Below are positions 1,717 through 50,015 of a DNA stretch of 64,000 bases, piece by piece. Numbering within the stretch: the stretch's first letter is position 1; each line of letters begins with the position of its first letter. A program made the position numbers and the translations under genes. The stretch is from the IMG/VR virus record IMGVR_UViG_3300001580_000013, positions 23,742-87,741 of that record; one strand, written 5' to 3'. Under the pieces are notes generated by a model. The model did no database searches. It saw only the letters and a program-made list of their open reading frames with translations, and had not been told where the DNA came from. Source of the DNA: a virus. Taxonomy: Duplodnaviria; Caudoviricetes.

Positions 1717-1745
1717 AATATAAGATATACAAATTAAAATGTCAA
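1717..1745 (-). promoter_or_regulatory. sigma70-type early promoter (TTGACA-N17-TATATT)
   Basis: Plus strand tgtcaa at 1740-1745 and aatata at 1717-1722, 17-bp spacer; back-to-back with TnpB copy 1. Confidence 0.8.
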
Positions 1746-1778: not shown

Positions 1779-2987
1779 ATGATAAGAACGTCTAAACATA
1801 TTCTCAAATTTGCCAACCAAAATAAATTAGATTTATTAGAACAAATTTATTTTGATTGTAAAAAGCAAATTGAAGTTTATATTGATCAAATTATATCGGC
1901 AAAGCTGGAATTAAGTAAGAGGATGAGCAGCAAATTGTTATCTAATGATTTCACAAAAAACTCCGATTGGAAAAATTTATGTTATCAACAAGCTTCTTCC
2001 ACCATCGGAAGTCAATACAAAAAAGCATCCAATAAAAGATTTAATTCTTACAAAAAGATTTACACCAAACTAAAAGAACAAAATAGATATCAAAAATTTT
2101 TATCAAAGAAATTCTCTGAATTAAATTTAAAACCAATTCAACAAACAAAATATTTCACTAAACCAAAATTGAATAATGTAACTATAATTATTCCAAAAAA
2201 TTTAATTAATTTCACTTCGGATTCTAAATCCTTTGATTCATTTATTAGATTAACTACACCATATAAAAAATCCATTCATAGATATCAAACCATCAATATT
2301 CCAATAAAATATCATTTTCATTCCAATAAATTTAGAACTTCTGGGTGGAAGTTGAAAAATTCTATTTCCTTGAACAAAGTTAATGATAACTTATACTTTG
2401 ATTTATTTTGGGAGAAAGAGCAAGTTACAAAGAAAACAAAAGGAAAGCAAATAGGTTTAGATTGTGGTTATAAGAAGCTACTCATTTCATCAGAAAATAA
2501 AATATATGATTTGGGTATGAAGAAAATCTATAACAAACTATCCAGAAAGAAACAAGGATCAAAGAATTTTAAGCAAGCATTAACTGAGAGAGATAATTTA
2601 ATTAATCGAAGTATAAACAAGATAGAAATGGAAGAAATAAAAACAATTGTAGTTGAAGATTTAAAGAATGTAAAGTTGGGAAGCAAATTTAGTAAAAAAT
2701 TTAATAACAAGCTACAGAGATGGAGTTATCCAAAGGTTTTGGTGAAGCTATCTATGATTTGTGAGGAACAAGGAATAAACTTGGTTAGAGTTGATCCTGC
2801 TTATACAAGTCAAACATGTAGTAAATGTGGATTTAAAGATAAGAAAAACCGTTCTGGTGAACGGTTCTTGTGTTTGAGTTGCGGAATGACTATGGATGCT
2901 GATTATAATGCATCAATTAATATTTTGCATAGAGGCATATACAGTTCCTCTACCGAAAATAATAAAGCTGATTTAAAGGTTAGCTGA
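1779..2987 (+). CDS. tnpB: RNA-guided endonuclease TnpB (IS607-type), copy 1
   Basis: 402 aa; RuvC triad IGLDCG / VVEDL / DADYNAS intact; zinc finger CSKCG...CLSCG; YTSQTC motif. Confidence 0.93.
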   Translation: MIRTSKHILKFANQNKLDLLEQIYFDCKKQIEVYIDQIISAKLELSKRMSSKLLSNDFTKNSDWKNLCYQQASSTIGSQYKKASNKRFNSYKKIYTKLKEQNRYQKFLSKKFSELNLKPIQQTKYFTKPKLNNVTIIIPKNLINFTSDSKSFDSFIRLTTPYKKSIHRYQTINIPIKYHFHSNKFRTSGWKLKNSISLNKVNDNLYFDLFWEKEQVTKKTKGKQIGLDCGYKKLLISSENKIYDLGMKKIYNKLSRKKQGSKNFKQALTERDNLINRSINKIEMEEIKTIVVEDLKNVKLGSKFSKKFNNKLQRWSYPKVLVKLSMICEEQGINLVRVDPAYTSQTCSKCGFKDKKNRSGERFLCLSCGMTMDADYNASINILHRGIYSSSTENNKADLKVS

Positions 2988-3011
2988 CTGTAGAATACAA
3001 ATTAATAGTAA
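2930..3011 (+). ncRNA. predicted TnpB omegaRNA 3-prime scaffold plus guide (copy 1)
   Basis: TAGAGG/CCTCTA hairpin, AGCTGATT-TAAA-GGTTAGCT hairpin, conserved end GACTGT at 2986-2991, then unique flank AGAATACAAATTAATAGTAA. The 5-prime boundary is not determined. Confidence 0.7.
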
Positions 3012-3023
3012 CATTTTATACTC

Positions 3024-3911
3024 CTATTTTAGTTTTTTCTGAATCATTTTTTTAGTTATTCCGCTAATTTCTTCAAATGCTTTATAATCAAAGTTTGGAA
3101 GATTCAACAATAATTCAACATCTTCTTTACTCGCAAATTCAAATGATTTCTGAAAACACTCTTTATATGTTTTACCAGCTTCTAAATTAAAATAAATAAA
3201 ATTGGGTTTCTTAGACTCTTCCCATAACTTTCTATCACAATCTTTATTAAATATTCTAACTGTTTCTGATTGTATAGTATTAAAGAAACCTGTTTCGTAA
3301 TTACAATTATTCCAGTTACCCGTATTCCTGTTACCCGTATTCCAGTCACCTGTATTGCTGTCACCCGTATTCCTGTTACCCGTATTCCAGTCACCTGTAT
3401 TGCTGTCACCTGTATTCCAGTCACCTGTATTGCTGTAACCTGTATTCCAGTTACCTGTATTCCTGTCACCTGTATTGCTGTCACCCGTATTCCAGTCACC
3501 TGTATTCCAGTCACCTGTATTCCAGTCACCTGTATTGCTGTTACCTGTATTGCTGTTACCTGTATTGCTGTTACCTGTATTGCTGTTACCTGTATTTCTG
3601 TTACCCGTATTGCTGTTATTATCATATTTGACAATAACTTCTTTTACAAATTTAAAAGATTTACAAACATGTTTTTCTATTACACCAACAGAATCACCCT
3701 CTTCTAAATCTTCTGCTTCAATTTCAAAGATTCTATTTGTTTCCTTATCAATCCACATATTCCAATATTCCGTTACATGATATCCTTTATTACACAAAGA
3801 AATATCATCAATTCTCGGAACTGATTTTCCGCTATTAACATATTCAGTGTAATCAAATGTTCCACCATCTTTCGCTTGCAAATCTTTGTTTAATACTTTG
3901 TAGAGTTTCAT
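3024..3911 (-). CDS. phage pentapeptide (G-N/D-x-N-T) repeat protein
   Basis: 295 aa; N-terminal LC..GYH domain, 20 tandem GxxNT units, C-terminal FFNT...FN domain typical of this phage family. Confidence 0.85.
   Translation of the reverse strand: MKLYKVLNKDLQAKDGGTFDYTEYVNSGKSVPRIDDISLCNKGYHVTEYWNMWIDKETNRIFEIEAEDLEEGDSVGVIEKHVCKSFKFVKEVIVKYDNNSNTGNRNTGNSNTGNSNTGNSNTGNSNTGDWNTGDWNTGDWNTGDSNTGDRNTGNWNTGYSNTGDWNTGDSNTGDWNTGNRNTGDSNTGDWNTGNRNTGNWNNCNYETGFFNTIQSETVRIFNKDCDRKLWEESKKPNFIYFNLEAGKTYKECFQKSFEFASKEDVELLLNLPNFDYKAFEEISGITKKMIQKKLK
3306..3605. repeat. 15-bp coding tandem repeat, 20 units
   Basis: Units such as tgtattccagtcacc and tgtattgctgttacc encode the GxxNT pentapeptides on the minus strand. 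Confidence 0.95.
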
Positions 3912-27660: not shown

Positions 27661-27679
27661 ATTTTTATTTATAAAATTT

Positions 27680-42937: not shown

Positions 42938-42968
42938 ATCTTTATTTATAAAAATTCTTTCTTTTTAC

Positions 42969-48208: not shown

Positions 48209-48579
48209 AGCTATTGTCCCTTTTTTAATTTTTATTTCTATATTTATTTATAAAGTAAACGGGATAAATTCAAAATAAAAATACTTTAAAAATGAAAAAT
48301 ACTTAAAAAATTTTCCACTCTTTAAGTATTTGGGATGTTATTTTGTATTTAAATTTTGTTTATTTCGGAAGTTACAATTATTAAAAATTAAAAATAAAAA
48401 CCATTTCTCGCTAAGTTTAAACTGTTTTTACTCTTACTATCTCTATACCAATTTTTGATATTATCATAATATAGTTCTATCATTTCTTGTAATTAAATGA
48501 AAAAATAATGAAAATAATTATTTGACTCCCCCTAATTTTTTTATAAATAAGGATATAAAATTAAATTTGGTTAGAAAAA

Positions 48580-48786
48580 ATGAAACTAAGTGAATATGCA
48601 AAGAAACATAATGTGACCTACAGAACAGCCTACAATCATTTCATTAAAGGTTGGATTCCTACAGCCTATCAGCTTGAATCTGGAACTATCATGATCCCAG
48701 ATGATAACAGCACACAAGAACTAAAGAACACAGTGAACGAACTTAAAAAACTTATTCAAGAACTAAAAGATACAAAAAATAAATGA
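48580..48786 (+). CDS. tnpA: truncated IS607 TnpA: MerR-like HTH + short coiled coil, no serine-recombinase domain
   Basis: MKLSEYAKKHNVTYRTAYNHF..G.IP.AYQL.SGTI.I matches the IS607 TnpA N-terminus; the YARVS catalytic motif is absent. Confidence 0.8.
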   Translation: MKLSEYAKKHNVTYRTAYNHFIKGWIPTAYQLESGTIMIPDDNSTQELKNTVNELKKLIQELKDTKNK

Positions 48787-49991
48787 TAAGAAGAAGTAAA
48801 CACATATTAAAATTCGCTAACAAAAATAAATTGAATATGCTCGAACAAATTTATTCGGATTGTAAAAAACAAATTGAAGTTTACATTGATCAAATTATAA
48901 AAGGGAAATTAGAATTAAAAAAGATGATGAGTTCGGCTTTATTATCGAATGAATTTATAGAAAACTCCGATTGGAAAAATTTGTGTTATCAATATGCTTC
49001 TTCCACCATCAGAAGTCAATACAAAAAAGCATCAACTAAAAGATTTAATTCTTACAAAAAGATTTATGCTAAACTGAAAGAACAAAATAGATATAATAAA
49101 TTCACAACAAAACGATTTAAAGAATTAAAACTCAAACCAATTCAGCAAACTAAATATTTCGTCAAACCAAAATTGAATAATGTTACGATAATATTAACTG
49201 TACATTTATTTAATTTTACTTCGGATTCTAAAAATTTTGATTCATTTGTGAGATTAACTACACCATATAAAAAATCGGCGGGAAGATATCAAACAATTAA
49301 TCTTCCAATAAAGTATCATTCTCATTCAAATAAATTCAGAACTTCTGGTTGGAAGTTGAAGAACTCTATTTCACTTAACAAACTAAACGGAAACTTCTAT
49401 TTTGATTTATTCTGGGAGAAGGAAGAAGTTAGTAAAAAGTTGGAAGGAAAACAAATAGGATTAGATTGTGGATACAAGAAGCTACTTATTTCATCAGAGA
49501 ACAAGATTTATGATGATGGACTTGAAAAAATCTATGAGAAGTTATCAAGAAAGAAACAAGGATCAAAAAACTTCAAACAAACATTAACCGAAAGAGATAA
49601 TTTAATTAATCGAAGTATAAACAAGATAGAAACAGAAAGTATTTCAACAATAGTAGTAGAAGATTTAAAGAATGTAAAATCAAAAAGCAAATTTTCAAAG
49701 AAATTTAATAACAAGCTACAGAGATGGAGTTATCCAAAGGTTTTGAATAAACTATCTATGATTTGTGAAGAGCAAGGAATTAATTTAGTTAAAGTTGATC
49801 CCGCCTATACAAGTCAAACATGTAGTAAATGTGGACACAAACATAAAGATAATAGGAAGTTAGAAAAGTTTTTATGTTTAAGTTGTGGAATGACTATGGA
49901 TGCAGATTTCAATGCATCTATAAACATTTTACATAGAGGCATTTATAGTTCCTCTACCGAGAATAATAAAGCTAATTTAAAGGTTAGCTGA
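48783..49991 (+). CDS. tnpB: RNA-guided endonuclease TnpB, copy 4
   Basis: 402 aa; RuvC D/E/D and zinc finger intact. Confidence 0.93.
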   Translation: MIRRSKHILKFANKNKLNMLEQIYSDCKKQIEVYIDQIIKGKLELKKMMSSALLSNEFIENSDWKNLCYQYASSTIRSQYKKASTKRFNSYKKIYAKLKEQNRYNKFTTKRFKELKLKPIQQTKYFVKPKLNNVTIILTVHLFNFTSDSKNFDSFVRLTTPYKKSAGRYQTINLPIKYHSHSNKFRTSGWKLKNSISLNKLNGNFYFDLFWEKEEVSKKLEGKQIGLDCGYKKLLISSENKIYDDGLEKIYEKLSRKKQGSKNFKQTLTERDNLINRSINKIETESISTIVVEDLKNVKSKSKFSKKFNNKLQRWSYPKVLNKLSMICEEQGINLVKVDPAYTSQTCSKCGHKHKDNRKLEKFLCLSCGMTMDADFNASINILHRGIYSSSTENNKANLKVS

Positions 49992-50015
49992 CTGTCCCAA
50001 TTATATGTCGCTGTT
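49934..50015 (+). ncRNA. predicted TnpB omegaRNA 3-prime scaffold plus guide (copy 4)
   Basis: TAGAGG/CCTCTA and AGCTAATT-TAAA-GGTTAGCT hairpins, GACTGT at 49990-49995; flank CCCAATTATATGTCGCTGTT. Confidence 0.7.

Follow-up and report, generated by a model that had tools for sequence, protein, structure and literature searches.

In the ISDra2 element of Deinococcus radiodurans (PDB 8H1J/8EXA), the omegaRNA of TnpB has a 116-nt scaffold that starts with stem 1, and the stem-1 loop (bases -105 to -103) pairs with the bases beside the guide (-5 to -3), forming a pseudoknot that stacks on stem 1 (PMC10097598). The primary RNA is 231 nt long and overlaps residues 335-408 of the protein (~74 codons); the 115 nt located 5′ of stem 1 are dispensable in vitro, and the essential core overlaps the disordered C-terminal domain (PMC10097598). 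That TnpB trims its own guide RNA is shown for other TnpBs (PMC10278001). The reRNA of ISFba1, an IS607 TnpB, derives from RAGATH-18, is 187 nt long and lies entirely outside the coding sequence (PMC11061315). Finally, TnpB/omegaRNA elements that lack a transposase act as RNA-guided homing endonucleases (Meers et al., PMC10055086).

Here, we analysed a window of 64,000 nt that is part of an 87.7-kb IMG/VR viral contig (30% G+C, ~47% complete). It contains four intact tnpB paralogues, whose proteins are 79-85% identical:

1779..2987, + strand: tnpB copy 1, 402 aa, with a Cas12f1-like TNB domain and a zinc finger; AlphaFold model available
27660-26452, - strand: second tnpB copy, a paralogue
42937-41717, - strand: third tnpB copy, a paralogue
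48783-49991, + strand: fourth tnpB copy, a paralogue

The protein encoded next to the RNA described below is a TnpB with RuvC triad and zinc finger: PF07282 matches it with E = 1e-20, its PDB matches are TnpB and Cas12f, AlphaFold2 with a 40-sequence alignment yields a confident TnpB fold (mean pLDDT 87), and D228, E293 and D375 of the triad, together with the four cysteines, are unchanged throughout the family. At the 3′ ends of the tnpB copies the last ~65 nt are almost invariant, against ~80% identity in the remaining gene, and the homology of the four copies ends abruptly after GACTGT, 4 nt beyond the TGA stop, where unrelated sequence follows. The same limit is seen with two more copies in a related phage contig (six copies in all), and the window has exactly four occurrences of the 14-mer GGTTAGCTGACTGT at the element end, where chance alone would give 0.14.

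We propose that the 3′ end of each tnpB doubles as the pseudoknotted omegaRNA scaffold of the same nuclease, a reading to which we give, on comparative sequence evidence, a probability of roughly 0.8. The core would be an H-type pseudoknot: its 5′ strand, five bases in the loop of hairpin 1 (ACAGT or ATAGT), pairs with the final ACTGT, and the two strands are separated by an A-rich linker and a hairpin 2 that varies. Its parts are the following:

2930..2952, + strand: hairpin 1; 2930-2935 and 2937 pair with 2946 and 2947-2952, C2936 being bulged
2941-2945, + strand: 5′ strand of the pseudoknot, ACAGT, within the hairpin 1 loop
2953..2965, + strand: single-stranded, A-rich linker of 13 nt (most relatives: ~9 nt)
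2966..2985, + strand: hairpin 2, 8 bp with a TAAA loop
2985-2987, + strand: TGA stop of tnpB copy 1
2987..2991, + strand: ACTGT, which closes the pseudoknot as its 3′ strand and forms the right end of the element (last 5 nt)
2992..3011, + strand: putative guide segment, copied from flanking DNA and different for each copy, by the known TnpB mechanism (PMC10097598)
26448..26506, - strand: the same core in the 27660(-) copy, with a linker 3 nt shorter and a hairpin 2 loop CAAA
41713..41774, - strand: the same core in the 42937(-) copy, with one hairpin 1 mismatch and a loop ATAGT that gives a U·G wobble in the pseudoknot
49934..49995, + strand: the same core in the 48783(+) copy

Hairpin 1 is written TAGAGG/CCTCTA (TAGATG, with one mismatch, in the 42937(-) copy) and occupies the codons H-R-G-I-Y-S-S-S-T; hairpin 2 reads AGCT(G/A)ATT-(T/C)AAA-GGTTAGCT, and the loop A(C/T)AGT of hairpin 1 is complementary to ACTGT. 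All the details listed in the original prediction were found in the four copies: two hairpins with A/G and T/C variants, one mismatch in stem 1 and a terminal GACTGT that ends 4 nt beyond the TGA. The pairing it had proposed between loop and element end holds for 5 bp (2941-2945 with 2987-2991), which covary, and finds no support for a sixth, T2946-G2986, as T2946 instead pairs with A2937 in hairpin 1. We infer that the A-rich linker may lie in the groove of hairpin 1.

A large protein collection contains 912 relatives of the TnpB protein with E <= 1e-20; close relatives are common on viral and metagenome contigs but scarce in cellular genomes, and more than one tnpB copy is present on several phage contigs. 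With the RuvC-III motif D-x-D-x-N-A-x-x-N-I as anchor, so that no RNA model enters the alignment, the 3′ ends of the relatives were aligned with MAFFT without structure fitting (32-57 homologues; alignments A4, n = 32; A5, n = 52; A6, n = 44). The same architecture recurs in these relatives: hairpin 1, written in the codons x-R/L/M-G ... S/P-S/Q/H, an A-rich linker of ~9 nt, a variable hairpin 2, one spacer base and a terminal pentamer, mostly ACTAT, beyond which the similarity between copies of one contig ends. Hairpin 1 is 97-98% paired and has changes on both sides in 6 of its 7 pairs in A4, A5 and A6 (variants TAGAGG/CCTCTA, TTTGGG/CCCAAA, ATGGG/CCCAT and CAGGGG/CCTCCTG); its seventh pair, A2937-T2946, is 100% paired, by GC in 26 sequences and by AU in 18. 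The 5-bp pseudoknot is 97-99% paired with all five pairs double-changed in A5 (ATAGT/ACTAT, ACAGT/ACTGT, ATAAT/ATTAT, ATTGT/ACAAT, ATAGC/GCTAT and GTGGT/ACTAC), and exactly one pseudoknot double change separates L018 from L021, which share a contig. Taken together, 10 of the 11 pairs of hairpin 1 and pseudoknot are changed on both sides in A4, A5 and A6; none of 500 column shuffles attained the observed values, and pairing fell to 43-59% when the 3′ partners were slid by 1-3 columns. The original prediction had seen here an omegaRNA-type scaffold at a transposon right end with a pseudoknot adjoining the guide; the strong covariation of hairpin 1 and pseudoknot, on alignments made without structure fitting, argues for just such an RNA.

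The element ends of the relatives were partly curated by eye. In an automated re-test the end was set by hairpin 2 alone, a procedure that recovers about half of the ends cleanly: a perfect 5-bp complement was located one nt past hairpin 2 in 39 of 75 sequences, against 27 on average and 34 at most when loops were swapped between sequences 1000 times, and the sequences with an ACAGT loop all terminated in ACTGT. Hairpin 2 itself is present in 46 of 49 relatives (median z -3.6) and absent from L008, L033 and L054; its sequence and length (4-20 bp) vary in the family and MAFFT gave no consistent alignment of its columns. The RNAalifold consensus of a gap-free 141-column alignment returned hairpin 1 alone.

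Two groups of relatives deserve a separate mention. L033 and L054 are neighbouring tnpB copies without hairpin 2 on a 429-kb jumbo-phage contig (IMGVR_UViG_3300025030_000039); just ~44-46 nt separate stem 1 from the element end, and their pseudoknots differ by a compensatory change (GTGGT/ACTAC versus ATGGT/ACTAT). L009-L016, L064 and L069 have an in-frame TGA within the RuvC-III motif (D-A-D-stop-N-A), and because this position reads Trp in other members, their phages probably use a code in which TGA means Trp.

The RNA also leaves its mark on the protein. In the family, synonymous choice is free in the codons upstream of hairpin 1 and codon restriction starts exactly at this hairpin, in the codons of R-G-x-Y-S-x-S: Arg is always encoded by AGR, Tyr by TAT and Gly by GGA, and of the two Ser sites one has AGT and the other TCT. 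The amino acids of the tail covary by base-pair rules (R-G..S-S versus L-G..S-Q versus M-G..P-H). In the AlphaFold model the last helix ends at residue 383 with no secondary structure beyond, and residues 389-402 have a pLDDT below 50, the tail being predicted as disordered. The codon restriction, the base-pair covariation of the residues and the unstructured tail together suggest that the tail is largely a translation of the RNA, which bears out the earlier proposal that RNA structure shaped the C-terminus.

Conserved RNA folding reaches ~170-240 bases upstream of the 62-nt core, in three to four hairpins (~2695/2755-2918), among which are:

2891..2918, + strand: hp0; 2891-2899 pair with 2910-2918, in the RuvC-III codons x-D-A-D ... 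N-A-S/A-I
2830..2880, + strand: hpZ, a long hairpin flanked by the two zinc-finger CxxC motifs
2755..2812, + strand: hpA, a long predicted hairpin in the codons C-E-E...P-A-Y-T-S-Q; the fold is kept and the register varies

The hairpin hp0 lies 11 nt upstream of hairpin 1 and has, in copy 1, a G·A mismatch at 2894/2915. One of its pairs joins two third-codon positions seven codons apart and occurs as UA in 20, AU in 7, GU in 6 and GC in 5 sequences; 39 of 44 sequences are paired there against 21 expected (p < 2e-4), and two adjacent pairs are also significant. Covariation supports a secondary structure that comprises hairpin 1, hairpin 2 and hp0. An all-against-all column scan (375 nt upstream, 97 representatives) placed only hairpin 1 and hp0 above noise; hpZ and hpA were missed by this fixed-column scan because their register shifts between relatives, and they are based on folding z-scores and shifted-register examples, versus fixed-column covariation for hp0. 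For hpZ, these registers are of the ATTGATAA/TTATCAAT type and of the ACATAAA/TTTATGT type; in individual folds, some amino acid changes beneath hpZ and hpA look compensatory.

Sliding-window folding of 60 relatives gave z values of -2.4 at 2820-2879 and -1.9 at 2745-2804 over a background of about -0.2. Against permutations of synonymous codons, which preserve both the protein and its codon usage (threshold z -1.64), hpZ had a median z of -2.37 with 77% of 70 relatives below the threshold and hpA a median of -1.83 with 56% of the 70; the corresponding proportions were 10-16% in control segments and 41% of relatives in region 2695-2753. In copy 1, bases 2750-2991 fold into a hairpin series with z = -4.4. 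A further helix predicted in copy 1 (2881-2885/2926-2930) was rejected, as its pairing in the family is only 79%. The six close copies have their highest synonymous-site identity (0.88-0.95) at codons 306-330 (window 2695-2768), a region that may be an additional 5′ element or an RNA processing site. The covariation of hp0 and the stability of hpZ and hpA indicate that selection keeps RNA structure well 5′ of hairpin 1, and the conserved upstream hairpins point to a natural RNA of probably 240-300 nt, which is an ordinary length.

This bears directly on the size of the functional scaffold. The original prediction had described it as compact, written entirely inside the C-terminal codons and possibly unusually short; a pseudoknot core of 62 nt is indeed what we find, while a scaffold made up entirely of these 62 nt and unusually short is not supported, given the conservation of hp0, hpZ and hpA upstream. 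That the 62 nt from hairpin 1 to GACTGT are nevertheless the whole functional scaffold, the upstream folds being dispensable, would agree with the sharp onset of codon restriction at hairpin 1, with the ~44-52 nt left in L033, L054 and L008 without hairpin 2, and with ISDra2, where the functional scaffold begins at stem 1 and the 5′ remainder can be deleted (PMC10097598). However, hp0 covaries at synonymous sites, hpZ and hpA beat the synonymous-codon permutations in 56-77% of 70 relatives, and nothing within 62 nt replaces the RuvC-contacting stems 2 and 3 of ISDra2. We thus consider this explanation unlikely, and we are equally doubtful that the module of hairpin 1, linker, hairpin 2 and pseudoknot suffices alone as a TnpB scaffold with the upstream hairpins acting only in processing or stability. 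If it did, this scaffold of 62 nt (~44-52 nt without hairpin 2) would have about half the length of the smallest natural TnpB scaffold characterised so far.

IS200/IS605 elements carry subterminal hairpins at their ends, and an internal sequence recognises their cleavage site through base pairing. The hairpins could thus be single-stranded DNA signals of an IS200/IS605 right end for Y1 TnpA, with the loop-end pairing as cleavage-site recognition: subterminal hairpins are on the same (top) strand in IS200/IS605 ends, and the last 5 nt would serve as the transposon-encoded motif. We find this very improbable because: (i) neither the contig of the window nor five further carrier phage contigs, of which two are at least 96% complete, have a Y1 TnpA (PF01797), which argues against a present-day TnpA signal on single-stranded DNA; (ii) no left-end hairpin matching the right end exists at the tnpB copies; (iii) the internal partner in IS608 is at the foot of the terminal hairpin and not in the loop of a second hairpin; and (iv) wobbles of the G·U type are frequent, the non-Watson-Crick cells of hairpin 1 and pseudoknot being G·U in 31 cases versus A·C in 4, and the fold is therefore read on the sense strand. 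An ancestral dual use as DNA signal and RNA is possible. A serine recombinase (PF00239), searched in the window's own contig, is absent as well, and no Rfam family reaches its gathering score, the matches at E <= 10 being at chance level. The locus is thus neither an autonomous IS200/IS605 element, with Y1 TnpA and left- and right-end hairpins, nor an IS607 element, with a serine recombinase TnpA and RAGATH-18 downstream of tnpB. Least credible of all is that the conservation reflects a functional protein tail (ILHRGIYSSS...) with RNA pairing as a by-product: the motif R-G-[IV]-Y-[SN]-x-S is widespread among proteins, but the fixed synonymous choices (Ser AGT/TCT, Arg AGR) go beyond protein function, residue replacements obey base-pair rules, the tail is predicted to be disordered and conservation runs 4 nt beyond the stop codon.

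The omegaRNA reading, in contrast, fits an RNA on the tnpB sense strand whose scaffold ends at the right-end boundary, and in which the loop of a 5′ stem forms a pseudoknot with the bases directly 5′ of the guide, the evidence for the latter being comparative. The RNA would run on into the flanking DNA as a copy-specific guide, so that the guides would be four different flanks; no second close match of any of them exists within the window. It would be the 3′ part of the tnpB mRNA, most likely excised by TnpB, since no internal promoter was seen; the following boxes stand before the ATG:

1764-1771: TATAAATA late-promoter box before the ATG of a tnpB copy
27666-27673, - strand: TATAAATA late-promoter box before the ATG of a tnpB copy
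42943-42950, - strand: TATAAATA late-promoter box before the ATG of a tnpB copy

These boxes are 5-7 nt upstream of the ATG in three of the four copies; for the 48783(+) copy the nearest box is at least 234 nt away. None is found inside the tnpB genes, and the motif is not enriched in the window (19 found versus 15 expected). Expression of the RNA would be followed by TnpB binding and guided DNA cleavage, and because there is no transposase, the elements would likely spread by homing into co-infecting genomes that lack the insertion (PMC10055086).

The left end of the elements is reduced to 10-20 nt, with just the late-promoter box before the ATG in three of the four copies. An upstream similarity of 50-70 nt, shared by copy 1, the 42937(-) copy and the relative L007, was considered as a transposon left end and set aside: a divergent sigma-70-like promoter fits better. 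Such a promoter is seen at window 1745-1717 on the - strand (TTGACA, 17 nt, TATATT; 11 of 12 matches), directed away from tnpB copy 1. No uninterrupted (empty) site turned up when the related 75-kb phage contig was searched at the DNA level and in translation. The 48783(+) copy (window 48500-48710) and the copy L006 of the related phage (G001 53775-53986) have their left neighbour gene in common and unrelated right flanks, and hence different guides. Around copy 1, an exact 11-nt direct repeat, ATACAAATTAA, occurs at window 1727-1737, ~40 nt upstream of the ATG, and at 2995-3005, 4 nt inside the presumed guide; it could be the trace of an insertion event or a common promoter-like sequence. Directly downstream of the copy-1 guide, window 3024-3911 (- strand) is a 295-aa ORF with a long run of a five-residue repeat (N-T-G-D/N-S/W/R), which corresponds to a tandem 15-nt DNA repeat.

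One DNA stretch would thus carry two codes, the RNA pseudoknot dictating the C-terminal amino acids and the RNA helices upstream running through synonymous positions within the codons for the catalytic and zinc-finger residues. The family counts at least 900 proteins, mostly on viral contigs, and has no Rfam model; the structure would allow right ends and guides to be annotated automatically. For genome editing, it offers a natural TnpB with a pseudoknot core without stems 2 and 3, about half as large as that of ISDra2, the selection on the upstream hairpins being a reason for caution.

How does this RNA compare with the described systems? As in ISDra2, it is a sense-strand RNA over the tnpB 3′ end with the right end a few nt past the stop, the loop of the first stem pairs with the bases before the guide, the core overlaps a disordered tail, and the total natural length is similar (~230 nt there, an estimated 240-300 nt here). 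Because the topology is the same, hairpin 1 would correspond to stem 1 of ISDra2 and hairpin 2 to the guide-proximal stem. The differences are nonetheless substantial: stem 1 is 116 nt from the element end in ISDra2 versus 62 nt here, stems 2 and 3 are absent and a single variable hairpin precedes the 3′ strand of the pseudoknot, and the pseudoknot has 5 canonical bp in place of 3 canonical and 2 non-canonical ones. The 5′ part is dispensable in vitro in ISDra2, whereas the upstream hairpins are conserved here; the two TnpBs are only distant relatives (E = 7e-7) and TnpA is absent here.

ISFba1 has a TnpB of similar size (~390 aa) and a guide RNA with essential pseudoknots (PMC11061315). However, its RAGATH-18 motif was not found here, and the present core overlaps the coding sequence. 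Cas12a demonstrates that a very short, pseudoknot-only scaffold can work; the 5′ handle of its crRNA, like the core of the Cas12f sgRNA, derives from a CRISPR repeat and has no coding overlap, while the present RNA belongs to a TnpB without a CRISPR array. The elements of Meers et al. are similar in that they too combine tnpB with an overlapping omegaRNA in the absence of tnpA, with a guide that equals the flank and would cut insertion-free genomes, the difference being that the present copies reside in a T4-like lytic phage, behind late-promoter boxes and with practically no left end. TnpB omegaRNAs are an already known kind of RNA, to which the core described here is, judged from sequence comparison, a well-supported addition.
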